A stretch of 64,000 bases of DNA, taken from contig MGUA01000020.1 of assembly GCA_001799735.1 (NCBI GenBank), forward strand, positions 7,572-71,571, read 5' to 3'. The DNA comes from Elusimicrobia bacterium GWB2_63_22 (GTDB taxonomy: Bacteria; Elusimicrobiota; Elusimicrobia; Elusimicrobiales; UBA9959). Positions 18,970-58,994 of the stretch are shown here, in pieces; position 1 is the first letter of the stretch, and the number at the start of each line of letters is the position of its first letter. The notes beneath the pieces were generated by a model. It was not told the DNA's origin. It searched no databases and saw only the letters and a program-made list of their open reading frames with translations. A program made the position numbers and the translations under genes.

Positions 18970-19302
18970 CTAGCACCAGCCGCCGCGGGCGTGCGAACCG
19001 TGGCTGCCGTGCGAACCGTGGCTGCCGTGCGAACCATGGCTGCCGTGCGAGGCGTGCGAACCGTGGCTGCCGTGCGAGCCGTGGCTGCCGTGGCTCTGGT
19101 GGCTGACGTGCGAGGTCGGGTCGGCCGGCGGGTAGAAGTAGTTCTGGTGGATGGTCTGCGCGCTCGCCTGGTCCACCATCGCCGCGCCGAGTATGCCCAG
19201 CGCGAGGCCGGCCTTCACTATGTCGGCGTCAAGCATCTTCCCCTCTTCGCTGTTGAGGAAGAGCTTTATATTCTTTTTTACTCCGGGTTTTTTCTTTTTC
19301 AT
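18970..19302 (-). CDS. His-Xaa-Ser repeat peptide (HxsA-like precursor candidate), 110 aa
   Basis: ORF-track entry 18970..19317 begins at a TTG. Five codons in there is an ATG (19302) preceded by AAGGAG with a 6-nt spacer. Product: MKKKKPGVKKNIKLFLNSEEGKMLDADIVKAGLALGILGAAMVDQASAQTIHQNYFYPPADPTS, then HVS-HQS-(HGS)4-HAS-(HGS)6, then HARGGWC. Confidence 0.8.
   Translation of the reverse strand: MKKKKPGVKKNIKLFLNSEEGKMLDADIVKAGLALGILGAAMVDQASAQTIHQNYFYPPADPTSHVSHQSHGSHGSHGSHGSHASHGSHGSHGSHGSHGSHGSHARGGWC
18994..19110 (-). repeat. Coding tandem repeat: 13 x 9 nt, organised as ~18-nt units gtgcgaaccgtggctgcc, encoding His-Xaa-Ser
   Basis: Direct reading shows gtgcgaaccgtggctgcc repeated with minor variants from ~18991 to ~19110 on the plus strand. 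On the minus strand it is in frame with the peptide CDS. Confidence 0.85.
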
Positions 19303-20695: not shown

Positions 20696-22146
20696 TTTTT
20701 TGCCACCCAGCTCTCCAGCACCTTTTTGTCGCGGGCGTTCCCCAGCCTTTTAAAAATAGCGGCGAAGACGCCCTTGAACAGGCTGCAGCGGCCGTTGGAG
20801 CGCATATTGCCCCACAGCGAGCCCTGCGCCTCGTAGTTGTACACGGGGCAGACGCCGCAATAGGGCTTATAGGCGCAGCGCGAGCATTCGGGCTGGGCCT
20901 CGAGATTGGAGGAGACCACGCAGGCGCGGGCGGCCGGCGAGGCGAGGACCTTGCGCAGGCTGTCCTTGAACACGTTGCCGACGCGGAAAATGTCGTCGCC
21001 TTCCCAGCCCACCATGCGGCCCTCGTCGCAGGTGAAGAGGTCGCCGTTGTAGTTGTAGGCGATCTGGCCTATGGCCGCGCCGCAGGGGCAGCGCGCGTCC
21101 AGGTAGCCGGGCTCCGTGGCGTTCACTATCTTCTCCAGCATCATGGCGGCGGTCTTTTCGCGCATGACCGTGCCGCGGCGGTTAAGGGCGAGGATGTAGT
21201 CCAGGCAGCGGCCGTAAAATTCCTGGAACTCTTCCGGGGTATAGCCGATCTTGTCCCAGAGGCCGCGGGCGTAGCCGATGGGGGCCAGCGGCCGCACGAA
21301 GATGTCTTCCAGCCCCAGCGCCGCGTACTCTTCTATGATCTCCTTCCAGCGGGGCAGGGACTGGCGGGACACGGTGAGCAACGCGCCGGGTTTGAAGACG
21401 CGGTACTGCTGCGACTGGCGCGCGTGTTTCTCCTGGAAATATTTTATCCAGCGCACCGTGGCGGCGTGGGAGTTGCCGCCGGCGAAGATCCGGTTCTTGT
21501 TATGCAGGTCCGCCGGGCCGTCGAGAGAGGTGCAGATGGAGACCTCATTCTCGAGGAGGAAACGGGCCTTCTCCTCCGTCATCAGGGTAAAATTGGAGAC
21601 CAGCGCCAGCTTGAGTTCCTTGCCGGTGGCGGCGGCCTTTTCGCGGGCGCGCTTCACGGCGGCCTTCAGCACGTCCCAGTTCAGCAGCGGCTCCCCGCCC
21701 TGGAACTCTATGGTTATCAGGGGATTGGGAGAGGTGAAAGCGAAATCCACGCTGGCCAGCGCGGTCCTGCGGTCCATGTCCGTCTTTTTTGCGCCCTCGC
21801 CGGCGGCGCTGGACTGGCAGTAGAGGCATTTATGGTTGCACCTGAGGGTCAGCACCAGTATGTGCAGGCCCGGCCCCTGGTCCAGGTGCGCGTTCAGGGT
21901 GCGCCATTTAGCGGCCAGCCCTTCAAAATCCATGCTCTCCCGGACGAAGCCCGCGGCGGCGAGCCGCTTGAAGAGGGGGTCTTTTTTGGTTATGCCGCCG
22001 GCCATGACCCGCGCGAAATCCTTCTCGCCCAGCAGGGCGTGACAGCCGGCGTCGTTGGTCAGCAGGCGGCCGCCGGCCACCCGCTCCCAGCGGGCCAGGG
22101 GCGTCCTGGCGGACTTTTTATTTTTTACGGGGCTTTTTGGCGCCAT
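20692..22146 (-). CDS. Radical SAM / SPASM-type maturase, HxsB-like
   Basis: 484 aa with CNHKCLYC, IEFQGGEPLL, and a C-terminal Cys block (CPCGAA..., CSRCAYKPYCGVCPVYN, CSLFKG) typical of SPASM auxiliary clusters. Paralog of 539..1930. Confidence 0.8.
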   Translation of the reverse strand: MAPKSPVKNKKSARTPLARWERVAGGRLLTNDAGCHALLGEKDFARVMAGGITKKDPLFKRLAAAGFVRESMDFEGLAAKWRTLNAHLDQGPGLHILVLTLRCNHKCLYCQSSAAGEGAKKTDMDRRTALASVDFAFTSPNPLITIEFQGGEPLLNWDVLKAAVKRAREKAAATGKELKLALVSNFTLMTEEKARFLLENEVSICTSLDGPADLHNKNRIFAGGNSHAATVRWIKYFQEKHARQSQQYRVFKPGALLTVSRQSLPRWKEIIEEYAALGLEDIFVRPLAPIGYARGLWDKIGYTPEEFQEFYGRCLDYILALNRRGTVMREKTAAMMLEKIVNATEPGYLDARCPCGAAIGQIAYNYNGDLFTCDEGRMVGWEGDDIFRVGNVFKDSLRKVLASPAARACVVSSNLEAQPECSRCAYKPYCGVCPVYNYEAQGSLWGNMRSNGRCSLFKGVFAAIFKRLGNARDKKVLESWVAKK

Positions 22147-22579
22147 ACTTGTCTTCCCAAGTGCTCGTCAGTCCCAGCGGGTCCGCGGCTCCCCCGCGGA
22201 CGTCCTCTTTAATTTCTTTCTCGACCTGCGAAATAAGGTCGGCCAGCTCTTTTTCCTGTTCCGGGGTAAGCCCGGAATCCGGGACCGGGGCCGGGGTAGG
22301 CGAGGAGAGCGCCTTCAGCGTAAGGAACTCCCTGAGCTCCCTGTTCTCGGCCGAAATTTTTTCCCGCAGCTTCTCGTCCTCCAGTTCGGCCAGGAACTTC
22401 CCCTTCAGGGCGGCTCCGGACCCGCCGTCTTTAGGCGAGAGCGACACGGCCACGGCGCCGGCGCCGGCGCGGCTTATAAAAACGAAAGCCTCGCCGCTCA
22501 GGGCGTAAGCCGCGTAGCGCGCGGCGTCGAGGCTGTATTTTTTAAGGTCTACCTTAACGTTTGCGATCCTGTTGTCCAA
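22118..22579 (-). CDS. HxsD-like small protein (copy 2) with acidic/Pro-rich C-terminal extension
   Basis: 153 aa. The N-terminal ~100 aa parallel copy 1 (YSLDAARYAAYALSGEAFVFI vs YSKEAVELAAYVFAGRCGVKV) and contain LAELEDEKLREKI (an xLRE motif). It overlaps the HxsB-like start by 29 nt. Confidence 0.55.
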   Translation of the reverse strand: MDNRIANVKVDLKKYSLDAARYAAYALSGEAFVFISRAGAGAVAVSLSPKDGGSGAALKGKFLAELEDEKLREKISAENRELREFLTLKALSSPTPAPVPDSGLTPEQEKELADLISQVEKEIKEDVRGGAADPLGLTSTWEDKYGAKKPRKK

Positions 22580-22612
22580 AGCCCTGTCCTCCGTAAACTC
22601 GTTCTAAACCCG

Positions 22613-23398
22613 TCAGATTATACGGCAGCAGACCATGGTGCCGCCCCAGTCCTCGCCGAGCACTATGTAGCGGCCGACCCCGGTGGAAGTCTGGTTCAGG
22701 GGCAGGAAGCCCCAGACGCGGGCCACGCCGTCGCCCATATAGCCCATCACGCGGGCCCCCGCCGGGCAGAACGCCTGGGGCCCTATGGTGTACTGCACCC
22801 TGGAGCAGACGTTGCGGATATAGCCGGTGCCGGGGGTCATGATGATGTCGCCGGTCACCGAGATATTGCCGGAGACGCTGAGGCGCTGGCTGGGGAAGGA
22901 GGTGGCTATGCCCACGTTGCCGCCCTGGGTAATGGTCATCTGGGGCGAGGTGATGCGCTGGGTACCGGCCTGGGGCAGGCCGAAGACCCAGTTATTGCTG
23001 GAGTCTATGCCCATGGCCTTTACCACGTTGCCCTGCCGGGTCATCGCGATATAGGTAAGGGTCTGGCCGGAAGCAGGGCGCGTGACGCCGAAGGTGCCGT
23101 AGGACGCCGTGTCGGCATTAGCGCTGCCGTCCGTTATCTGCGTGGCCCCGTGCACGTGCAGTTTGCTGCCGGGCCCGGCGATGTTGATGCCCACGTTGCC
23201 GCCGTCCCTGGCCAGCAGGGTCTGGTTGGTGGTCAGCAGGCTGACATAGCCGCCGTAAGGGGCCGGATAATAAGTGGTAAGGGTTAAAGTCTCGGAGCCG
23301 ATAAAGCCCGGATGCCAGGCCAGCAGAAAGAAAGCAAGCAGAACCGAGATCTGCCTGCGGTTGAAGTTGAGTTTTAAGGATATTTCCGTGGTTTCCAT
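22613..23398 (-). CDS. Membrane-anchored or secreted protein with tail-fibre-like GNVGI repeats and a Cys-containing C-terminal domain
   Basis: ORF-track entry 22613..23434, trimmed to Met13 (METTEISL...), which is preceded by GGGGGAGG. It has a hydrophobic anchor (ISVLLAFFLLAW), TLTLTTYYPAPYGGY, two GGNVGI(N/A)...L.V.G motifs, and 4 Cys in the last 70 aa. Confidence 0.6.
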   Translation of the reverse strand: METTEISLKLNFNRRQISVLLAFFLLAWHPGFIGSETLTLTTYYPAPYGGYVSLLTTNQTLLARDGGNVGINIAGPGSKLHVHGATQITDGSANADTASYGTFGVTRPASGQTLTYIAMTRQGNVVKAMGIDSSNNWVFGLPQAGTQRITSPQMTITQGGNVGIATSFPSQRLSVSGNISVTGDIIMTPGTGYIRNVCSRVQYTIGPQAFCPAGARVMGYMGDGVARVWGFLPLNQTSTGVGRYIVLGEDWGGTMVCCRII

Positions 23399-23463
23399 AG
23401 AACCTCCCCCACTGGGACCGTCCCAAAGGCGCAAAACAGCGCCGCACCCAAATGCGCTGCTAT

Positions 23464-23518
23464 AGTCTAGCAGAAAATATTAATATTTTCAACGGGAAGT
23501 TAAGTATATGTATATACT
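23464..23518 (-). promoter_or_regulatory. Candidate promoter plus two AT-only palindromes upstream of the Hxs-type operon
   Basis: On the minus strand: TTGAAA (23492..23487), 17 nt, then TAGACT (23469..23464). A perfect 18-bp palindrome GAAAATATTAATATTTTC (23473..23490) overlaps the -35 and spacer. A second near-palindrome AGTATAT-gt-ATATACT lies at 23503..23518. Both are striking in a high-GC background. Confidence 0.35.
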
Positions 23519-23907
23519 CAAAGGAGGACCACGGTAAAAGGGGTTTTTGACTTTTCCAGCAGGAAAGCCCGGGCTTCGCCGGCCACATCGGCAAAATCCT
23601 CCAGGTCTTTGGGGGAGGAGGCGAGAAAAGAGGCGGAATTGCTTATTACCAGAGCGTAGCCGCCTGCCGGCAGCTCTTCGTGCAGGGACCGGAGGCAGTC
23701 CAGAAGAGCGTCCCAGTTGCGGCCGAAATAGGCGGGAAATTTGAAACTGTCGGCGAGCGCCTCCATAAGTTCGGCCTTGGCGGGGACCTTTGCCCCGTCT
23801 ATCCAGGCTGTAAAATAAACCGGCGGAGGGAACATTTTATTGATCCCCTCCGCCGTCATGCCGCGGCCCTTAAGGTCCAGGAAAAGTCCTTGTTCCCCGG
23901 GGCCCAT
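23518..23907 (-). CDS. Barstar-family ribonuclease inhibitor
   Basis: 129 aa with ...ELMEALADSFKFPAYFGRNWDALLDCL..., matching the barstar signature (F-P-x-Y-[FY]-G-x-N-x-D-A-L-x-D-C-L). It lies immediately downstream of the RNase gene. Confidence 0.8.
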   Translation of the reverse strand: MGPGEQGLFLDLKGRGMTAEGINKMFPPPVYFTAWIDGAKVPAKAELMEALADSFKFPAYFGRNWDALLDCLRSLHEELPAGGYALVISNSASFLASSPKDLEDFADVAGEARAFLLEKSKTPFTVVLL

Positions 23908-23911
23908 CGGC

Positions 23912-24463
23912 TCAGTAAACTACTTCGAGCAGTATGAAATGCGCGTAATGGTCGGGCGTGTAATAGATCTTCTGGCCGCCGCCGATTATAACGCGCTCGG
24001 AACCGCGGGCGCTCAGGTCGGGCGCCACCTGATAGGTGGTGCCGCCTATCACTACGGTGTGCGGGGCGTTGCCGGTGAGCAGCGTGTACTCTTTGTAGAA
24101 GCCGGCGGGCTGCGCGGGCAGTTTGCCTTCCTTGTTCTTGAAGGTGGTGCCGTCCTGCGAGTAGGGCAGGGGCTTGCCGTTATAAACATCCGAAACGAGC
24201 TTCATGATGGCCTTGATGCGGGCCTGGTCCTTGATGACGGGGGTGAAGTCCTTGCCGGGCTGCGGGGCGAGGCCGGCGGCCTTTTCCGGGGCGGCTACCT
24301 CGGCGGGGACGGGGAGCTCTACCAGGTTGGTATAGGACGAATTATCCAGCAGGTCGCCGAGCGCGGCGGATTTAAGTTCCTGCGCGCCGGCATAAGAAGC
24401 TATCGAAGTGAAAGAGAGGGCGGCTACCGCGAAAACATTTAACCAGAAGTTTTTCTTAAGCAT
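23912..24463 (-). CDS. Secreted barnase / RNase Sa-type (microbial N1/T1 family) ribonuclease
   Basis: ORF-track entry 23912..24484. The likely start is Met8 (MLKKNFWLNVFAVAALSFTSIASYAGA signal peptide), preceded by AAGGA. The C-terminal domain reads ...DGTTFKNKEGKLP...FYKEYTL...RGSERVIIGGG.KIYYTPDHYAHF, with the catalytic-type E, R and H context of barnase-like RNases. Confidence 0.8.
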   Translation of the reverse strand: MLKKNFWLNVFAVAALSFTSIASYAGAQELKSAALGDLLDNSSYTNLVELPVPAEVAAPEKAAGLAPQPGKDFTPVIKDQARIKAIMKLVSDVYNGKPLPYSQDGTTFKNKEGKLPAQPAGFYKEYTLLTGNAPHTVVIGGTTYQVAPDLSARGSERVIIGGGQKIYYTPDHYAHFILLEVVY

Positions 24464-24575
24464 GTTGACGTCCTTTATCCGCATTTTTAACGACAGCGTT
24501 ACAGTTATAGTTTAACTATACTGGCAAACCTTGCCGAGAGCAATAAGACCCAGGCCCGCCTAGGTCTTTAGGCCC

Positions 24576-24610
24576 AAAAAAGAACGGGCCGCGGTTTTTC
24601 TCCGCGGCCC
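24576..24610 (-). terminator. Intrinsic terminator downstream of the PIN-PhoH gene
   Basis: 9-bp GC stem gggccgcgg (24586..24594) pairs with ccgcggccc (24602..24610), with a 7-nt loop. On the minus-strand transcript it is followed by GUUC-UUUUUU (A-run 24576..24581 on the plus strand). Confidence 0.6.
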
Positions 24611-24632
24611 GCCCGTTCCGGCTTTCCCGGGG

Positions 24633-25937
24633 TTACAGCAGTTCCGCCACCAGGGCCGCCAGCTGGCTGCGCTCGGTCTTGGTGAACGTCAGGTGGCCGT
24701 ACAGCTTCTGGCCGCGCATGCGGTCCACAATGTAGGTCAGGCCGTTGGAGGCGATGTCCAGGTAGGGGTTGTCTATCTGGTACGGGTCGCCGGTGACGAC
24801 GACCTTGGTGCCCTCGCCCGCGCGGGACAGGATGGTCTTGATCTCGTGCGGCGTCAGGTTCTGGGCGTCGTCGACGATCATGTACTGCTTGGGCAGAGAG
24901 CGGCCGCGGATATGCGTCACAGAGGCGATCTCGATCTTCTCGTTCTGCAGCAGGTATTCGAATTTTTCCACGGCGCTTTCCTGGTGGCGCTTGTCCATCA
25001 CGAACTCGAGGTTGTCGTAGATGGCGCCCATCCAGGTGGAGAGCTTCTCCTCCTTGGTGCCGGGGATGAAGCCGATGTCCTTGCCGACGGGGACGATGGG
25101 GCGGCAGATGATGAGCTTGCGGTAGACGTTCTCCTCCACGGCCTTCTGCAGGCCGCAGACCAGCGTCATCAGGGTCTTGCCGGTGCCGGCGGCGCCGAGC
25201 AGCGTGACCAGCTTGACGGAGTCGTCGAGCAGCAGCTCCATGGCGCAGCGCTGCTCCTTGTTGAGCGGGCGGATGCCCCACGGCGAGGGTTCGGCCCCGA
25301 GCGCGCGGATCTTGGAGACGTCGTTCGGGTCCACGCGGCCGAGCGCGGACTTCTTGGGGTCCTCTTTGGAATGGATCACCACGAACTCGTTGGGGGAAAG
25401 CTCCTCTTTCTCGGGGCTCTTCAGCTCGTGGTCCTTGTAGAACTTGTCGACGGAGGCGGAAGGCACGTCGAGCGACACCAGGCCGGGGTACAGCTCGTCC
25501 ACGTTCACCTTACCGGCCTCGTAATCCTCGGTGGTCAGGCCCACGGCCTCGGCCTTGAGGCGCAGGTTGATGTCCTTGGTCACCAGGATGGCGCTGTGCT
25601 TTTTCTGCTCGTACCAGTAGGCGGTATTGAGGATGCGGTTATCCATCTCGAGCAGCTTGAATTCTTTGGGCAGCACCTGCACGTGGTCCAGGTCCACGAT
25701 CAGCGTGCCGCCAGCCTCGGTCTTCACGCCGGCGTTCAGCTTGCCCTTGATGCGGAACTCGTCGAGCTTGCGCGACACGATGCGCGCGCTCTTGCCGCGC
25801 TCGTCGGCGGTATGTTTAAAATTGTCCAGCTCCTCTATGACGGAGATCGGGATCACTACGGTGTTCTCTTCGAATTTGGTGAAGGAAAGCGGGTCGTGGA
25901 TGAGTACGTTAGTGTCGAGTATGTAGACTTTTTTCAT
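24633..25937 (-). CDS. PhoH-like ATPase with N-terminal PIN domain (YlaK-type)
   Basis: The ORF-track entry 24633..27788 is over-extended. The real start is MKKVYILDTNVLIHDP (434 aa, ATG 25937), preceded by GGAGGAAG. PIN-type N-terminus; Walker A LLGAAGTGKT; PhoH motifs IVDDAQNLTPHE and VVVTGDPYQID. Confidence 0.9.
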   Translation of the reverse strand: MKKVYILDTNVLIHDPLSFTKFEENTVVIPISVIEELDNFKHTADERGKSARIVSRKLDEFRIKGKLNAGVKTEAGGTLIVDLDHVQVLPKEFKLLEMDNRILNTAYWYEQKKHSAILVTKDINLRLKAEAVGLTTEDYEAGKVNVDELYPGLVSLDVPSASVDKFYKDHELKSPEKEELSPNEFVVIHSKEDPKKSALGRVDPNDVSKIRALGAEPSPWGIRPLNKEQRCAMELLLDDSVKLVTLLGAAGTGKTLMTLVCGLQKAVEENVYRKLIICRPIVPVGKDIGFIPGTKEEKLSTWMGAIYDNLEFVMDKRHQESAVEKFEYLLQNEKIEIASVTHIRGRSLPKQYMIVDDAQNLTPHEIKTILSRAGEGTKVVVTGDPYQIDNPYLDIASNGLTYIVDRMRGQKLYGHLTFTKTERSQLAALVAELL

Positions 25938-26102
25938 TCTTCCTCCGTTGATCGGCTTGGGGGTTTTTGCGCGCCCGGGATGCAACCGTTGGGCGCCCTG
26001 ACCCGTAGTATTTATGTCAGCGATATCAAACTCCGCTAATTCTAGCATAAAATACGGGAAAGACCGATTTATGCCGCGCGGCAAAAATAGTAAGATATCT
26101 AT

Positions 26103-28657: not shown

Positions 28658-29470
28658 ATGAAAAAACTTATTTTCCTGTTGCTGGCGCTGGCGCCCCTTA
28701 ACGCGGGAGCCCTGGAGCTCCTGCTCGAGGAGAACCGCGGCGAGTCCGGGACCATCGGCTACGTCGACATAGACCGGGTGTTCAAGGAATACTCCGGCAC
28801 CACCGGCGCGCGCGACGAGTTCATCGCGGAGATAAAAAAGCGAGAGGACGCCCTGAACGCCAAGAAGATGACGGTGTTCACCCTCAAGGCCGAGATCGCC
28901 AAGCTGCGCCAGGAGCGGGAATTCGCCATAACCCTCCCGTCGCTGCTGGAGACCCGGCGCAGCGTGGAGGAGGCCGCCGCCGCGGTGGCGGCTTCTACCC
29001 AGGCTGCTCCCCAGCAGGTCTCCACCCAGCCCGCCGCGGGAGTGCAGGCTTCCACCCAGACCGCCGTTTCTACCGCCGCCCCGGCCGCGCTGCCGGCCGG
29101 CCTGGCCGCCCTCCCCGGGATGGACGGCATCGACATGCCCGGCGTGGCCAAGGTGCCCGTCGCCCATTTTAAATTCTCCGTCTCCACCTCCGTGCCGGAG
29201 ATAGACCTGGCCCTGCAAAAAAAAGAGACGGAACTAAAGAACAGGGAGGAGGACCTGCGCCTCTCCCAGCGGTTGGCGGAAAAAGAACTGCTGGACTACG
29301 AGAGCCGCAAAGGCGAGCTCCTGCTCGGCCGCATCTACGTCGCGCTCAAGGAACTGGCCATCAAGGAAGAGGTCAGCGTGATCGTAGACAAGCGCAGCAT
29401 CCTTTTCGGTCAGAACGCCGTGGACCTCACCGGCAAGCTGCTTAAGAAGCTGGAGGAGACCGGCCTATGA
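28658..29470 (+). CDS. skp: OmpH/Skp-like periplasmic chaperone with low-complexity insertion
   Basis: 270 aa. Signal peptide, coiled-coil segments typical of Skp (VDIDRVFKEY..., RIYVALKELAIKEEVSVIVDK), and the canonical position between bamA and lpxD. A ~70-aa Ala/Thr/Gln/Pro-rich insert sits mid-protein. Confidence 0.7.
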   Translation: MKKLIFLLLALAPLNAGALELLLEENRGESGTIGYVDIDRVFKEYSGTTGARDEFIAEIKKREDALNAKKMTVFTLKAEIAKLRQEREFAITLPSLLETRRSVEEAAAAVAASTQAAPQQVSTQPAAGVQASTQTAVSTAAPAALPAGLAALPGMDGIDMPGVAKVPVAHFKFSVSTSVPEIDLALQKKETELKNREEDLRLSQRLAEKELLDYESRKGELLLGRIYVALKELAIKEEVSVIVDKRSILFGQNAVDLTGKLLKKLEETGL

Positions 29471-30495
29471 ACCTGACCGCCGCCGACATAGCCAAGCTCG
29501 CCGAAGGCGACCTGCAGGGCGACGGCGCCACCCCGCTATTTGCCGCCGCCCCGTTGGAGAAAGCCGGCCCGGCGGACCTCACCTTTCTGGCCGACGCGGC
29601 CCTGGCGGCCGCCGCCGCCTCTTCGCGCGCCGGTTGCCTGCTGGCGCCCCGCGGCTGCGAGGCGGTCCTGAAGGTTTTCCCCGGCGTTGTGGTGTACACC
29701 AAGAACCCGAAGTATGCCTTTATGCTGGCCCTGCGCCTGATAGAGAAGGAAATGCGCCCGCTGCCCGCGCCCGGCATACACCCTTCAGCCGTAATTTCCC
29801 AGTCGGCCAAGCTCGGCGCCGACGTCCACGTGGGTCCCTGCGCCGTAATAGAGGACGGGGCCGCCATAGGTACCGGCGCCGTCATCGGCGCGCAGTGCTA
29901 TGTGGGCCGCAATGCCAGGGTGGGCGCGCGCTCGCGGCTTTACCCCGGCGTGAAGATCATGGACGCCTGTGAAGTGGGCATAGAGGTTATAGTCCACGCC
30001 GGCGCCGTGATAGGCTCGGACGGCTACGGCTACACCTCGCCCCGCGGCGTGCACGAAAAAATTCCCCAGTTGGGCAAGGTTGTTGTAGAGGATAAGGTGG
30101 AGATCGGGGCCAATACGGCCATCGACCGCGCGGCCCTCGAGACCACACTGATCGGCGCGGGCACCAAGATAGACAATTTGGTCCACATCGCCCACAATGT
30201 GCAGATCGGCAAGAATTGCCTTATCATCGCGCAGTGCGGCATAGCCGGCTCAACCGTGCTAGGCAGCGGCGTCATCATCGCCGGCCAGGCGGCGGTCTCC
30301 GACCACCTGACCATCGGCGACAATACCGTGGTGATGGGCAAGACCGGCGTGATAGCCGACCTGGGCCCCAACCAGATAGTGTTCGGCCACGTCGCCCGCC
30401 CGCGCCTGCAGGCCATGAAAATAGAAGCTTTGCTGGGCCGCCTCCCCGAAATGCACCGGACGATCAACAAGATCAGGAAGCAGCTCGGTATTTGA
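29467..30495 (+). CDS. lpxD: UDP-3-O-acylglucosamine N-acyltransferase
   Basis: 342 aa. LpxD-type N-terminal domain, long hexapeptide-repeat LbH (IHPSAVI..., GSDGYGY, KIPQLG.V.....VEIGANT.IDR, KIDNLVHIAHN). ATGA overlap with skp. Confidence 0.9.
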   Translation: MNLTAADIAKLAEGDLQGDGATPLFAAAPLEKAGPADLTFLADAALAAAAASSRAGCLLAPRGCEAVLKVFPGVVVYTKNPKYAFMLALRLIEKEMRPLPAPGIHPSAVISQSAKLGADVHVGPCAVIEDGAAIGTGAVIGAQCYVGRNARVGARSRLYPGVKIMDACEVGIEVIVHAGAVIGSDGYGYTSPRGVHEKIPQLGKVVVEDKVEIGANTAIDRAALETTLIGAGTKIDNLVHIAHNVQIGKNCLIIAQCGIAGSTVLGSGVIIAGQAAVSDHLTIGDNTVVMGKTGVIADLGPNQIVFGHVARPRLQAMKIEALLGRLPEMHRTINKIRKQLGI

Positions 30496-30504
30496 AAGGG
30501 TTCT

Positions 30505-30697
30505 GGCCGCGGTGTGCCGGCCGTGAGCTCATAAGCGTGCGCTGGGGAAGAGGGCCTGCGGTCCTCCGCCGGCCTCGAACTCGCTCGGCACACAGTGCCT
30601 CGCTCAAACAATCTCGGCCGCAGCCTTAATGATAGGCTGTCCGCTGCGGACCTTGGCCCTGCGCACTAAAATCGCTCACGGCCGGCACACCGCGGCC
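30505..30697. repeat. Palindromic structured intergenic element, copy A (between lpxD and lpxC)
   Basis: Perfect 24-bp terminal inverted repeat: ggccgcggtgtgccggccgtgagc (30505..30528) pairs with gctcacggccggcacaccgcggcc (30674..30697). It encloses a ~145-nt core that is ~95% identical to 41632..41784. Internal hairpins include ggcac-aca-gtgcc and ccgcagc...gctgcgg. Confidence 0.75.
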
Positions 30698-30714
30698 CGA
30701 CAGCACGAATTTCG

Positions 30715-31551
30715 ATGAGAACCACCATAAAAACACCAGCGACGATAGAGGGCATCGGCCTGCATAAGGGGAAGCCTTCGAAGGTTACTTTTCTGCCTGC
30801 CGAAGGGGCTACCGGGTACCGCTTTATCAGTTCCGTTTTCAGCGAACCGCTGCCGGCACGACTGGACCGGGTGGCGGGGACGGTGCGCGGGACTAATATT
30901 ACCGACGGCAAGAATACTATTTACACCGTAGAGCATTTACTGTCCGCCGCCGCCGGGCTGGGGATAGACGACCTCGATATAGAGATAACCGGGGAGGAGC
31001 CGCCGGCCGCCGACGGCTCGGCGCTGGCTTTCGCCACTGCACTGCACAAGGCCGGGCTGAAGGAAAAACCGGATCAGGAGCGCAAAACGCTCACCCTCTC
31101 AGGTCAGTTGGAGATGGTCAAGGGCGACATCCGGTTCGTCGCTCGACCGAACCACCTCGGCGTCACATTTAAACTCACCTACGACTACCCGCACAAACTG
31201 GTAGGCAAACAGGTTATAGAATTCACCCTCACTCCGGAAGAATACCTGGTCCGCGTGGCCCCGGCCCGCACTTTCGGCTTCTCCCATGAGCTGGAGGCCC
31301 TGAAGAAGGCCGGCCTCGCCCTCGGCGGTTCGCTGGACAACGCCGTGGTGATAGCCGAGAATGAAATAACGGCCAAGGGCGGCCTGCGCTTCGCCGAGGA
31401 ATTCGCCCGGCACAAGCTGCTGGACCTCATAGGCGACCTGGCGCTGACCGGCCTGCCGCTAAAGGATATCTATATTGAAGCCGAGCGCCCCGGGCACGCC
31501 GCCAATGTCAATTTTGCTAAACTATTATTGGAAAAGGCCCAAACAGTATGA
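30715..31551 (+). CDS. lpxC: UDP-3-O-acyl-N-acetylglucosamine deacetylase
   Basis: 278 aa with TI...GIGLH.GK...V.F.PA, TVEHLLSA, ARTFGF and EFARHK.LD.IGDL (Zn-ligand and HK motifs of LpxC). Confidence 0.9.
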   Translation: MRTTIKTPATIEGIGLHKGKPSKVTFLPAEGATGYRFISSVFSEPLPARLDRVAGTVRGTNITDGKNTIYTVEHLLSAAAGLGIDDLDIEITGEEPPAADGSALAFATALHKAGLKEKPDQERKTLTLSGQLEMVKGDIRFVARPNHLGVTFKLTYDYPHKLVGKQVIEFTLTPEEYLVRVAPARTFGFSHELEALKKAGLALGGSLDNAVVIAENEITAKGGLRFAEEFARHKLLDLIGDLALTGLPLKDIYIEAERPGHAANVNFAKLLLEKAQTV

Positions 31552-39848: not shown

Positions 39849-41606
39849 ATGCAAGAATTAGCCCCGCAAGCCCAGAAAGAACGCTTCAAGGTACTGCTGA
39901 AGTCCCTGTTCGGCTACGTAAAGCCGCACAAGGGCAAAATGCTGCAGGCCGCGGCTTCCATGCTGCTGCTGGCGGCTATCCGCGGCGGCATCGTCTATGT
40001 CATGGGCCCGGTCATCCAGGGCGTCTTTGTGGACAAGCGGATGGACATCCTGAGCATGGTGGTCATCGGCCTGCCGTTCCTGTTCGTCCTCAAGATGGTT
40101 GCCGAGTACACCAACACCTACACCATGAGCTGGGTGGGCCAGCGGGCCGTGCAGAAGATCCGCGAGGACCTCTTCACCCACATCCACCGCCTGTCGATAG
40201 AGTTCTACTGGCGCCGCCGCTCGTCCGACGTGATGAGCCGCGTGATCAACGACCTGACCAACGTGCAGAGCACGGTGCAGTTCATCCCGCTCTACGGCAT
40301 CCGCGACGTGCTGACGGTGGTCTCCTGCATCGGCGTGCTGTTCTACATAGACTGGCAGTTCGCGCTGATCTCGCTGGTCATCCTGCCGGTCACCGGGCTG
40401 CTGCTGGGGATCTTCGGCAAGAAAATGCGCCGGGCGAGCTCCGAGAGCAACGTGATCGTGAGCGAGATCTCGCACAAGTTCCAGGAGAGCCTGCAGGGCA
40501 TCACGGTGGTGAAGGCCTTCAATTACGAGGACCAGGCCATCGCCAAATTCAAGGTCTCCAACGACGCCTACTTCGGCAAGATGATGCGCTACCTGCGCGC
40601 CGCCACCATCAGCGGCCCCGTCATGGAGCTGCTGGGCGGCCTGGTGCTCATCGGCATCATCTACATGGGCGGCAAGGCCATCTTCGCCGGCACCATGAGC
40701 ACGGCCACGTTCTTCTCTTTCTCGGGCGGCTTCCTGACGGCCTACATGCCGCTCAAGAACATCTCCAACCTGAACTCCAAGCTGCAGCAGGGGCTGGCGG
40801 CCTGGGAGCGCATCTACCAGATCCTGGAGGAGAAGCCCGCCGTGGTGGTGAAGCACGAGACCAAGAACATAGACCACCTGGACGGGAAGATAGAGTTCCA
40901 GGGAGTGAATTACAAGTACCCGTCGCGCGACACGCAGGTGCTTAAGGACCTCTCTTTCACCATTAAGCCCGGCGAGGTCGCAGCCTTCGTGGGGCCGTCC
41001 GGTTCCGGCAAGACCACCATCATCCACCTGCTGCTGCGCTTCTTCGACCCCATCTCCGGCCGGGTGAATATTGACGACCACGACATGCTGGACCTGGACA
41101 CCACGGACCTGCGCGAGCACATGGGCCTGGTGACGCAGGACACGATCCTTTTCGACGACACGGTGTACAAGAACATCACCATCGGCCGCCCCGGCGCGAC
41201 GATGGCGGAGGTGGAGGAGGCCGCGCGGGCGGCCGACGCGCACGCCTTCATTACGGCGATGCCGCAGGGCTACGAGACCATGCTGGGCGAGCGCGGCGTT
41301 AAGCTTTCCGGCGGCCAGCGCCAGCGCCTGGCCATAGCGCGGGCGATCATCAAGAAGCCCAAGATCCTGCTGCTGGACGAGGCGACCTCCAACCTGGACA
41401 CCGCGAGCGAGCAGTCGGTGCAGGCGGCCATAGAGCGCATCCTGAGCGGCCGCACGGTGGTGATGGTGGCGCACCGGCTCTCCACGGTGAGGAACGCGGA
41501 CAAGATTTTCGTTCTCAAGAAAGGCGAGCTGGCCGAGACAGGCACGCACGAAGAACTCCTGGCCCTCAATGGCGTCTACAAGGGCCTTTACGAGGCACAG
41601 AGCTAG
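39849..41606 (+). CDS. msbA: ABC transporter, fused permease/ATPase; lipid A exporter MsbA-like
   Basis: 585 aa. Six-helix TMD followed by NBD with Walker A GPSGSGKTT, signature LSGGQRQR, and Walker B ILLLDEATS. Context directly after lpxB. Confidence 0.85.
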   Translation: MQELAPQAQKERFKVLLKSLFGYVKPHKGKMLQAAASMLLLAAIRGGIVYVMGPVIQGVFVDKRMDILSMVVIGLPFLFVLKMVAEYTNTYTMSWVGQRAVQKIREDLFTHIHRLSIEFYWRRRSSDVMSRVINDLTNVQSTVQFIPLYGIRDVLTVVSCIGVLFYIDWQFALISLVILPVTGLLLGIFGKKMRRASSESNVIVSEISHKFQESLQGITVVKAFNYEDQAIAKFKVSNDAYFGKMMRYLRAATISGPVMELLGGLVLIGIIYMGGKAIFAGTMSTATFFSFSGGFLTAYMPLKNISNLNSKLQQGLAAWERIYQILEEKPAVVVKHETKNIDHLDGKIEFQGVNYKYPSRDTQVLKDLSFTIKPGEVAAFVGPSGSGKTTIIHLLLRFFDPISGRVNIDDHDMLDLDTTDLREHMGLVTQDTILFDDTVYKNITIGRPGATMAEVEEAARAADAHAFITAMPQGYETMLGERGVKLSGGQRQRLAIARAIIKKPKILLLDEATSNLDTASEQSVQAAIERILSGRTVVMVAHRLSTVRNADKIFVLKKGELAETGTHEELLALNGVYKGLYEAQS

Positions 41607-41612
41607 CAGCCA

Positions 41613-41803
41613 CCGGTGAGGCGCGCCCTGTTCGCTCATAAGCGGGCGCGGCGGAAGAGGGCCTGCGGTCCTCCGCCGGCCTCGAACTCGCTCGGCACAC
41701 AGTGCCTCGCTCAGACAATCTCGGCCGCAGCCCTAATGATAGGCTGTCCGCTGCGGACCTTGGCCCTGCGCCCTAAAATCGCTCACAGGGCGCGCCTCAC
41801 CGG
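41613..41803. repeat. Palindromic structured intergenic element, copy B (between msbA and the ZIP transporter gene)
   Basis: 19-bp terminal inverted repeat: ccggtgaggcgcgccctgt (41613..41631) pairs with acagggcgcgcctcaccgg (41785..41803). Its sequence is unrelated to the arms of copy A, while the enclosed core is ~95% identical to copy A. Confidence 0.75.
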
Positions 41804-41827
41804 AGCCTGTCCTCGTGATTTTAACTT

Positions 41828-42547
41828 ATGGTAATCCTTTTTAGCATTATCGCGGTCATATTCACGCTGCTGGGGGCGGCGGGGGTGCTGCATTTCGGCA
41901 GCTTCAGCAAGACTTTCCTGGCCCGCACGCTGGCTTACGCCGCGGGCGTGCTCATCGCGGCCGCCATCCTGGACATCATCCCCGCCGGCTTCAGCCTTAA
42001 CTCCACGGCGCTTTCCTACGGCGTGCTGACGGCCCTGGCCGCCCTGTTCACGCTGGAGACCTTCGCCGCGCACAGCGCCTGCAGCGAGTTCATGGAAGAC
42101 TGCCACGTGCACCATATGGGCGCCTTCGCGCTGGCGGCGATGACGCTGCATTCGCTGCTCGACGGCTTCAATATAGCCGTGGGCTTCGCGCCGGGCGCGG
42201 TCGCCGGCCTTAACGTCGCGCTCGGAGTGGTGCTGCATAAGTTCGCCGACGGTATCACGCTGGTCTCGCTGCTGCTGCACGCGGGCCGGTCGCGGCGCGA
42301 CGCCCTGATGTACAGCGTGCTGCTGGCCGCGGCCACCCCGGCCGGCGCCTTTATAGCCGCCCCCCTCATTGAGAACATTCCACCCTCGGCCGAAGCCTTC
42401 GCCCTGGGCCTCAGCGGCGGCTCATTCCTCTATATCGCCATGGCGGACATCCTGCCGCGCCTGCATAAGGCCTACGACCGGCTGACCCCGGCCATCTTCC
42501 CGCTCGGTTTCGCCACGGTGCTGCTGATCCGCTATTTCGGAGAATAA
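41828..42547 (+). CDS. ZIP-family divalent metal (Zn/Fe) transporter, ZupT-like
   Basis: 239 aa polytopic protein with ...HS.LDGF.IA.GF... and ...HKF.DG..L... motifs characteristic of ZIP/ZupT permeases. Confidence 0.8.
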   Translation: MVILFSIIAVIFTLLGAAGVLHFGSFSKTFLARTLAYAAGVLIAAAILDIIPAGFSLNSTALSYGVLTALAALFTLETFAAHSACSEFMEDCHVHHMGAFALAAMTLHSLLDGFNIAVGFAPGAVAGLNVALGVVLHKFADGITLVSLLLHAGRSRRDALMYSVLLAAATPAGAFIAAPLIENIPPSAEAFALGLSGGSFLYIAMADILPRLHKAYDRLTPAIFPLGFATVLLIRYFGE

Positions 42548-58673: not shown

Positions 58674-58994
58674 ATGGAGAGAAGAAAATTATACGCGGCG
58701 TGGGGCGCGGCCCTGTGCCTCTGCATCCCGGCGGCCGTCTGGGCGCTGCGCCAGGGCGGCACCGGGGCGTTGCGCTGCCCGGACCCCGCCAATCCCATCT
58801 GCGGGCTCTACGCCGTCTGCCGACCCATCCTTGACGGCTACCCGGAAGCGGAAATCACCGCCGAGGGCAAGGACTGCACGCTGACCGTGGAGTCCAGCCA
58901 GCTCATCATCCGCAGGAAGAGGGTAGACGGCGCCGCTGGCTATTATTTCTACGCTCGCCGCCGGCCGGCCGGCGGCGAGCACCCGTACCGCTGA
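58674..58994 (+). CDS. Small hypothetical exported protein
   Basis: 106 aa with a signal-like N-terminus and 6 Cys. High third-position GC in this frame supports coding. No family recognised. Confidence 0.4.
   Translation: MERRKLYAAWGAALCLCIPAAVWALRQGGTGALRCPDPANPICGLYAVCRPILDGYPEAEITAEGKDCTLTVESSQLIIRRKRVDGAAGYYFYARRRPAGGEHPYR

Follow-up and report, generated by a model that had tools for sequence, protein, structure and literature searches.

A foldback repeat family of uncultured Elusimicrobia with maintained pairing and a probable single-stranded mode of action

Two intergenic segments in a 64,000-nucleotide stretch of the genome of Elusimicrobia bacterium GWB2_63_22 (contig MGUA01000020.1; this whole stretch is called here the window) are copies of a single interspersed foldback repeat, non-coding and about 193 bp long, which resembles the REPINs (doublets of REP, repetitive extragenic palindromic, sequences that form hairpins) and the MITEs (miniature inverted-repeat transposable elements), has had its pairing maintained and probably acts as a single strand. 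The unit is composed of a 149-nt core, a TC dinucleotide on each side of it and, outside these, a 20-bp terminal inverted repeat, or arm, on each side. The forward strand of the window ("window +") serves as the reference orientation for all copies. The family is previously undescribed, being absent from Rfam and from the literature that was searched; we place it among the interspersed palindromic repeats and assign it to no named family.

The two window copies, A in the spacer between lpxD and lpxC and B some 11 kb further on (Table 1), each start a few bases past a stop codon within an operon-like row of genes. A first-pass annotation of the window had described a near-identical core flanked by unrelated arms, and the first part of this description holds: positions 30527-30679 and 41634-41786 align over 153 nt at 96% identity with six substitutions, and a 36-nt core probe matches only copies A and B in the 64-kb window (shuffled sequences, 0). 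The arms are indeed inverted repeats within each copy, the pairing extending over 27 nt in copy A (30502-30528 with 30674-30700, 96% complementary) and over 25 nt in copy B (41607-41631 with 41785-41809, 92% complementary), and these are the two longest inverted repeats of the window. They are unrelated, however, only between A and B, whose arms are among the most diverged of the family; a loose consensus emerges across 24 locus groups. The two window copies fold much better than their dinucleotide shuffles do, with z = -9.5 and -6.7.

Searches beyond the window revealed a family of at least 50 distinct copies in at least nine Elusimicrobia metagenome-assembled genomes (MAGs) as well as in groundwater metagenomes. 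A 20-nt probe from the central hairpin matched 31 stretches in species-representative genomes, of which 27, in nine Elusimicrobia MAGs, are true copies; the best-sampled genomes are GWC2_64_44, with eight copies (exact-probe matches), and STC_50, with six. A second probe, from a different part of the core, matched 62 stretches in JGI metagenomes. The loci fetched for analysis (numbered L001 and so on) total 0.94 Mb, a small fraction of the genomes concerned; they gave 106 nhmmer hits, from which 51 distinct complete copies were bounded by a regular expression, while two more distinct copies lack recognizable ends. The hosts are uncultured Elusimicrobia from groundwater, sediment and other habitats. 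Neither plasmid and phage collections (BLAST) nor viral contigs (pattern scan) contained a match to the element, and Rfam 15 gave no match in the window at the gathering score; around copy A neither strand yielded one at E <= 10.

Every analyzed copy is intergenic, often beginning 0-10 nt past a stop codon and finishing 3-40 nt ahead of the next start. The neighboring genes are co-directional, convergent or, less often, divergent. They are ordinary housekeeping genes in which Pfam recognized glycosyltransferase, ZIP, ABC transporter, GMP synthase and peptidase C11 families; it found no transposase among them, a gene flanked by two copies included, and among the nhmmer hits over the fetched loci no copy is interrupted by a gene. 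The window LpxC protein is encoded on groundwater (Rifle aquifer) metagenome contigs, and of ten such contigs four break off within the element, which any repeat would lead one to expect. Contig ends inside the element were also seen at L007-L010, L013, L026, L036, L040, L046, L053, L101 and L104. With so many MAG and metagenome contigs ending there, the element is a recurrent assembly breakpoint for these organisms. One sub-family (L035, L039, L018, L105, L083 and L050), spread over several genomes and several loci, carries a 23-nt insertion (GAAGACCTGTCGCTGCGCTCCATC-like) after the core GAAC, beside the central module, which brings its core to 172 nt.

Covariation gives strong support to a rod-like fold that includes a three-way junction. 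The consensus fold, computed on 50 distinct copies, comprises 64 pairs, and 98.1% of its cells are standard pairs, compared with 82% when partners are shuffled and approximately 40% when they are slid by 1-3 columns. Double-sided changes occur in 29 of the 64 pairs, and the covariation score of 0.414 (0.115 in shuffles) was reached by none of 500 shuffles. The predicted single strand forms a rod that runs from the arms through an internal GAGCGA/GAGCGA motif and three helices to a three-way junction with two short hairpins. The T-A to G-C replacement between the two window copies, which the first-pass annotation had taken to be compensatory, lies in helix P2 exactly where it was placed (41644-41649/41768-41773 in copy B; see Table 1 for copy A), and it covaries throughout the family: P2 contains three covarying pairs, and its columns 38/188 are G-C in 34 copies, U-A in 16 and never broken. 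One covarying pair lies in P4 and two are in P5, which occurs in the forms GGCGGAGA/TCTCCGCC, GGCGAAGAA/TTCTTCGCC and GGCAAAGAA/TTCTTTGCC. In the short hairpin P7 (CAGCC/GGCTG, columns 64-69/77-82) the pair 65/81 is C-G in 31 copies, G-C in 10 and A-U in nine, and the extension of the central hairpin also shows double changes. A variant central module, present in 16 copies (columns 101/117 and 104/116), keeps the architecture in a shifted register. The supposedly conserved hairpin ccgcagc/gctgcgg, in contrast, is not a feature of the family: of its seven pairs, two (60% and 18% paired) change with no compensating substitution, and its variable base covaries instead with P7. Core identity between copies is 89-99%, and sequence conservation extends to the unpaired loops and internal loops.

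The arms are part of the element itself, as their fixed length, fixed ends and family consensus show. A position logo of the 24 locus groups is of random composition up to position -23; the consensus GGCGCGGGCGGGCTCGCCGC, with GG...CC at the outer ends, begins at -22 and is followed by TC, and the right flank mirrors this (+22). Between non-orthologous loci arm identity is mostly 50-85%, and many pairs fall at 70-85%. In the same 24 locus groups there is no conserved flanking target motif. The length distribution of flank repeats equals that of the shuffled control, so that no target-site duplication was detected. The ordinary hairpins of these genomes (306 kb examined) are of another type: an A run, a G+C stem of 7-10 bp, a 4-nt loop and a T run, that is, bidirectional terminators, some of which directly adjoin a copy of the element. 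No arm-like palindrome without a core was found in those 306 kb of loci, and nhmmer over the 0.94 Mb detected only core-bearing or truncated copies. At one orthologous site the element is missing altogether: STC_50 (L033) lacks the copy that lies downstream of a glycosyltransferase gene in GWC2_64_44 (L011), and neither arm nor any hairpin remains there. In copy A, L025 and L015 the arms are flush with the core, the TC being replaced by GA on one side (at 30525-30526 next to the left arm in copy A) or by GC on both sides; this gives the impression that one arm has served as the template for the other.

The mismatches tolerated in the arms differ between the two strands. In the window + orientation, distinct arms contain at positions 2-18 32 C·A or A·C mismatches versus three G·T (45 versus five cells on the alignment), counts that include some orthologous copies. 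On the complement of window + the C·A and A·C mismatches become G·T (G·U) wobbles, and the asymmetry holds alike for copies sense and antisense to host genes; read-through host transcripts are therefore not the selected form. The flanking TC...TC reads GA...GA on the same complement, and there GAGCGA is found four times, copy 1 facing copy 4 and copy 2 facing copy 3, a self-pairing that this strand alone would allow. Facing motifs would pair as G·A, A·G, G-C, C-G, G·A, A·G; in the minus strand of copy A, GAGCGA-GGCAC-TGT-GTGCC-GAGCGA would thus be a 5-bp hairpin extended by GAGCGA/GAGCGA, with tandem G·A around G-C/C-G. Together, the wobble pairs and the putative tandem G·A motifs indicate that it is the complement of window + which has been kept foldable, irrespective of how the host genes run.

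The history of the family combines vertical descent with decay, concerted evolution and inversion. In the lpxD-lpxC spacer of GWB2_63_16 (L027) there is a full copy with arms homologous to those of copy A, although nine of the 20 positions of the left arm differ (55% identity), and the L027 arms still pair at 18 of 20 positions. The right arm of copy A is homologous to the same-site arms of L027, L046 and L047. Further relatives differ in what the site contains: L046 (92% LpxC relative) has three right-arm differences from copy A; L047 (87%) is internally deleted, keeping the arms and only about 48 nt of the core ends; L048 (85%) retains only a 3' remnant; and in L045 (65%) lpxD and lpxC overlap and the spacer is absent. 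Other relatives have a different palindromic repeat in this spacer. This insertion must therefore be an old one, which has descended vertically and can be dispensed with. L079 is another internally deleted copy. The alternative palindromic family was observed in other Elusimicrobia at L044 2160-2470, L043 2120-2480, L093 850-990 and L042 2430-2470; it forms a long imperfect hairpin of approximately 300 nt with arms such as GGCGGCCTACCGCAGGG / CCCTGCGGTAGGCC, has the module CGCTCGGCCACACCGTGGCCTCGCTC in common with the central hairpin of the 193-nt element and, in L043 and L093, is fused to truncated copies of that element.

Orthologous sites either contain the complete unit with its arms or lack all of it. 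The arms at such sites evolve at several times the rate of the core yet remain complementary: orthologous arms and flanks have diverged by 20-45%, while the core is still 89-99% identical across genomes. Same-genome paralogs resemble the core more closely than its ortholog does in three of four orthologous pairs; the core of copy A, for example, is 88.7% identical to the core of L027, and the corresponding same-genome values are 96.0% and 97.4%. Mean core identity of non-orthologous copies is 94.9% within genomes versus 91.3% between them. Such concerted evolution within a genome explains why the window cores are 96% identical despite unrelated arms. It is patchy, since L016 and L032 share a rare, locus-specific P2 variant but carry the P5 variant of their own genome, a pattern which fits short-patch gene conversion better than replacement of whole cores. 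Flank alignments reveal in addition that, independently and at least four times, the core has come to lie in opposite orientation between homologous arms. The cases are window copy B versus L103 (flanks 92-96.5% identical; the left arm of copy B is 90% identical to that of this ortholog), L022, L070 and L083, from four related genomes; L017 versus L064, L077 and L078; L085 versus L035 and L062; and L031 versus L105. No pair of opposite orientation has flanks that are at least 99% identical, and seven independent contigs with copy A (six metagenome contigs carry a sequence identical to that of the window) all show one orientation; nothing therefore points to rapid phase variation. When templates are switched between short inverted repeats, arms are reported to be homogenized and spacers inverted (PMC8604942; likewise PMC8794818), and this would be a sufficient, though unproven, mechanism for the inversion of the core.

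Several other explanations of these data must be weighed. The element could be a cis-acting structured RNA that is co-transcribed with host genes, such as an mRNA stabilizer similar to REP or BIME (bacterial interspersed mosaic element) sequences, an RNase III site, an attenuator or a terminator. The strong covariation, the location of the window copies inside operon-like rows, where they closely follow a stop codon, and the long G+C-rich stem, which would form in RNA of both polarities, are all to its credit. Nevertheless, we judge it unlikely: between co-directional genes (orthologs included) 21 copies lie in one sense and nine in the other, 11 more lie between convergent genes and four between divergent ones; the 21 copies with a window +-like sense strand would place C·A, not G·U, on that RNA; no T-tract or terminator-like tail was found at the window copies; and at orthologous sites copies have been lost or truncated with nothing replacing them. 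The first-pass annotation had offered a structured element under selection for pairing as one of its two readings. Its pairing has been maintained, with heavy covariation in the arms as well as in four to five helices of the core, but the mRNA stabilizer, the attenuator and the host-read non-coding RNA it proposed find no such backing, as copies take either orientation to the genes and the wobble-tolerant strand is antisense to lpxD-lpxC. A family of small RNA genes transcribed on their own from the complement of window +, with the arms as closing stem, would suit the G·U-type wobbles and tandem G·A motifs of that strand and the conserved loop and internal-loop sequences, and would be a new one, no known family having matched. 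Its start, however, would fall upstream of the 5' arm, where the flanks are random; the lack of a shared promoter motif in these flanks makes an own transcript unlikely. Consensus scans of both strands detected no sigma-70-like promoter or terminator in or next to the window copies, and repeated inversion would uncouple the core from any external promoter. On balance this origin seems improbable to us.

The other reading of the first-pass annotation, a small mobile core that inserts into the loops of terminator hairpins already in place (here widened to take in hairpins of a separate palindromic repeat), with the old stems as its arms, is suggested by the wholly different arms of two window copies with 96% identical cores, by the presence of both core orientations within homologous arms, by the homogenization of cores within genomes and by the flanking TC...TC, which can be read as a 2-nt duplication. 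It is very hard to maintain. The arms have a fixed length of 20 nt, fixed GG/CC ends and a consensus, real terminators are unlike them, no core-less arm palindrome occurs in 306 kb and the sole empty site, L033, has no hairpin; insertion into terminators is therefore rejected. The TC dinucleotides, moreover, turn with the core and would form G·A pairs on the other strand, and the patchy homogenization, with P2 locus-specific and P5 genome-specific in L016/L032, fits gene conversion better. One might also suppose that the element is an old repeat, a passive and functionless DNA palindrome whose arm complementarity, internal double changes and inversions would all be side effects of gene conversion and of template switching during replication. 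As noted, template switching is reported to bring about both arm homogenization and spacer inversion (PMC8604942, PMC8794818); several copies are decaying, and the neighboring genes make no host function evident. But the core is 89-99% conserved while orthologous arms and flanks have diverged by 20-45%, its unpaired loops are conserved in sequence and the strand-specific mismatch spectrum is not predicted by symmetric template switching, so that we give this idea little weight. A phase-variable invertible switch (inverton) controlling neighbors such as lpxC would be attractive in that perfect 20-bp inverted repeats flank a segment, that the four or more inversions between related genomes prove that both orientations exist, that the element often lies 3-40 nt upstream of a start codon and that many contigs break inside it. 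Such breaks are expected for any repeat, however, and we found no opposite-orientation contigs with at least 99% identical flanks, seven identical copy A contigs in a single orientation, no promoter-like site in the core and no recombinase gene among the nearby genes. An inverton is thus highly implausible.

The preferred reading, that of a foldback repeat with maintained pairing which acts as a single strand, can be compared with known mobile or repetitive systems. In REP-RAYT systems the genome contains a cognate single-copy RAYT gene, usually flanked by repeats, and in the 0.94 Mb of fetched loci tblastn detected no RAYT gene that could be linked to our element. REPINs are non-autonomous hairpin-forming elements with compensatory changes, defined by two highly conserved, inverted REP ends separated by a less conserved spacer (PMC3116915). 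With these the element shares its short, non-coding, extragenic nature, the long hairpin in single-stranded DNA (ssDNA) or RNA, the compensatory changes, the lack of target duplication, a long vertical persistence and decay into remnants (PMC3116915). It behaves most like REPINs but fails their defining architecture: the REPIN ends (REP 16-mers) are conserved and the spacer is variable, whereas in this element conservation is lowest at the ends and the 149-nt center is nearly invariant. It is also longer, has a three-way junction and is lower in copy number. Classical MITEs, such as Correia elements and ERIC, have terminal inverted repeats that they share with an autonomous insertion sequence and that are conserved owing to transposase binding; they also produce a target duplication on insertion (e.g., TA for Correia). 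The element is like them in its size range (100-200 bp), terminal inverted repeats, intergenic location, non-coding nature and long RNA or DNA hairpins, but its terminal repeats are only about 50-85% alike between loci and target-site duplication is absent.

The ends of IS200/IS605 elements and of their gene-less derivatives, and also integron attC sites, are single-strand-specific recombination substrates. By analogy, the element would resemble them in having one functional folded strand, no target duplication and, in part of the site, structure that matters above sequence. Unlike IS200/IS605 ends it has no conserved flanking target tetranucleotide and no pair of similar subterminal hairpins, being a single rod closed by its ends. 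The attC sites have conserved R''/R' ends, a variable center and a fixed orientation to the cassette gene; the element has the opposite conservation pattern and a mixed orientation. Quasi-palindromes subject to template switching, as described in PMC8604942 and PMC8794818, are similar in that arms stay complementary while diverging and the spacer becomes inverted. This, however, is a mutational process and not a kind of element, and it leaves core conservation, dispersal and the strand-specific mismatches unexplained. An IS110/bridge-RNA element was also considered on account of the TC...TC flanks and discarded: there is no open reading frame (ORF) in the 193-nt unit (the small ones, examined by eye, run into the variable arms) and no longer copy, and instead of behaving as a shared core dinucleotide the flanking TC turns with the core, while the empty site is without a palindrome. 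Likewise rejected were an intrinsic terminator, consensus scans having found no terminator-like site at the window copies, and a promoter, for which scans at both of them found nothing attributable to the element.

As to mechanism, the complement of window + would act, or be acted upon, as a single strand. Analogy with REP/REPIN-RAYT, IS200/IS605 ends or attC sites suggests that this would most likely be ssDNA on which an enzyme acts in trans; recognition could then fall to the conserved core, with the arms only as a clamp, and template switching between the arms during replication may explain part of the arm homogenization and core inversions. A more specific version, which we advance only tentatively, is that the element is the cis substrate of an unrecognized ssDNA transaction system which recognizes the folded 149-nt core, with its GAGCGA tandem G·A motifs and two short hairpins, and not the termini, treats the arms as a sequence-free clamp and carries out both flipping and homogenization enzymatically rather than by passive template switching.

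A number of observations weigh against the foldback-repeat interpretation or moderate it. Only a single empty site was recovered, and its flanks are too diverged to give exact ends or to distinguish insertion from loss. In principle a preference for certain targets, and not shared ancestry, could underlie the arm consensus, and the orthologous copies included in the mismatch counts are not independent. The minus strand is predicted to be the more stable in 49 of 50 copies, yet this is mostly an effect of base composition: the strand energy difference is -8.7 kcal/mol in shuffled sequences and -10.0 kcal/mol in real ones, and because shuffles give nearly the same value folding energy was rejected as evidence. 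A replication-coupled single-strand mechanism might have predicted a link with local GC skew, and none was seen in copy orientation (20 positive, 24 negative, p = 0.34), although this is a weak test. Searches of the 0.94 Mb of loci by tblastn with approximate IS608 TnpA and Escherichia coli RAYT queries gave no match. The copy number is modest (eight exact-probe matches in GWC2_64_44) and below that of typical REP/REPIN populations. Finally, RNA is conceivable as the active form, DNA being the more likely one.

Table 1. Positions of the two window copies, their parts and the adjacent genes (window coordinates).
Feature	Position	Strand	Remarks
Copy A, complete 193-nt unit	30505..30697	minus (strand whose fold tolerates wobble pairs)	between lpxD and lpxC
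Genes around copy A	lpxD 29467-30495, lpxC 30715-31551	+	
Copy A left arm GGCCGCGGTGTGCCGGCCGT, 20 nt	30505..30524		no mismatch with right arm; followed by GA at 30525-30526, not the usual TC, hence pairing flush to core
Copy A right arm ACGGCCGGCACACCGCGGCC	30678..30697		preceded by TC at 30676-30677
Copy A core, 149 nt, GCTCATAAGCG...CTAAAATCGC	30527..30675	-	consensus fold and pair counts
Copy A helix P2	30537-30542/30661-30666		
Copy A helix P3	30551-30556/30655-30660		
Copy A helix P4	30560-30564/30648-30652		
Copy A helix P5	30568-30578/30612-30620		
Copy A central module TCGCTC-GGCAC-ACA-GTGCC-TCGCTC	30581..30605	-	
Copy A hairpin P7, CAGCC-TTAATGATA-GGCTG	30621..30639	-	9-nt loop conserved
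Copy B, complete unit	41612..41804	-	between MsbA-like ABC transporter and ZIP transporter genes
Genes around copy B	MsbA-like ABC transporter 39849-41606, ZIP transporter 41828-42547	+	
Copy B left arm ACCGGTGAGGCGCGCCCTGT	41612..41631		followed by TC at 41632-41633
Copy B right arm ACAGGGCGCGCCTCACCGGA	41785..41804		preceded by TC at 41783-41784; 19/20 positions pair with left arm
Copy B conserved core, 149 nt	41634..41782	-	

Some further features of the window were recorded in passing. At 58953-58980 there is a perfect 28-bp palindrome, GCTCGCCGCCGGCC|GGCCGGCGGCGAGC, within the last 15 codons of the ORF 58674-58994; its outer part is like the arm consensus GCTCGCCGC, and a core is absent. 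On the minus strand, at 18970-19110, tandem 9/18-nt units encode a histidine-rich (HGS)n sequence, ...SHGSHGSHGSHGSHASHGSHGSHGSHGSHGSHGSHA, near the C-terminus of an ORF. Immediately upstream of the bamA-skp-lpxD row (L001 1-5223, equivalent to window positions of approximately 20700-26000) are genes for a barnase-like ribonuclease and barstar, a PhoH/PIN ATPase, and a pair consisting of HxsD and a radical-SAM/SPASM protein.

These results add a well-defined structured repeat family to a phylum that is known almost only from metagenomes. On the practical side, the element breaks metagenome assemblies, and it marks intergenic sites in rows of essential lipid A and outer-membrane genes. The family also provides a natural data set for spacer inversion and arm homogenization at short inverted repeats, and its strand-specific wobble pattern offers a way to identify, from sequence alone, the active strand of a palindromic repeat. 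Its architecture, an invariant center with free but complementary ends, is the mirror image of that of the REPINs and MITEs, and this raises the question of what it is that recognizes the element.

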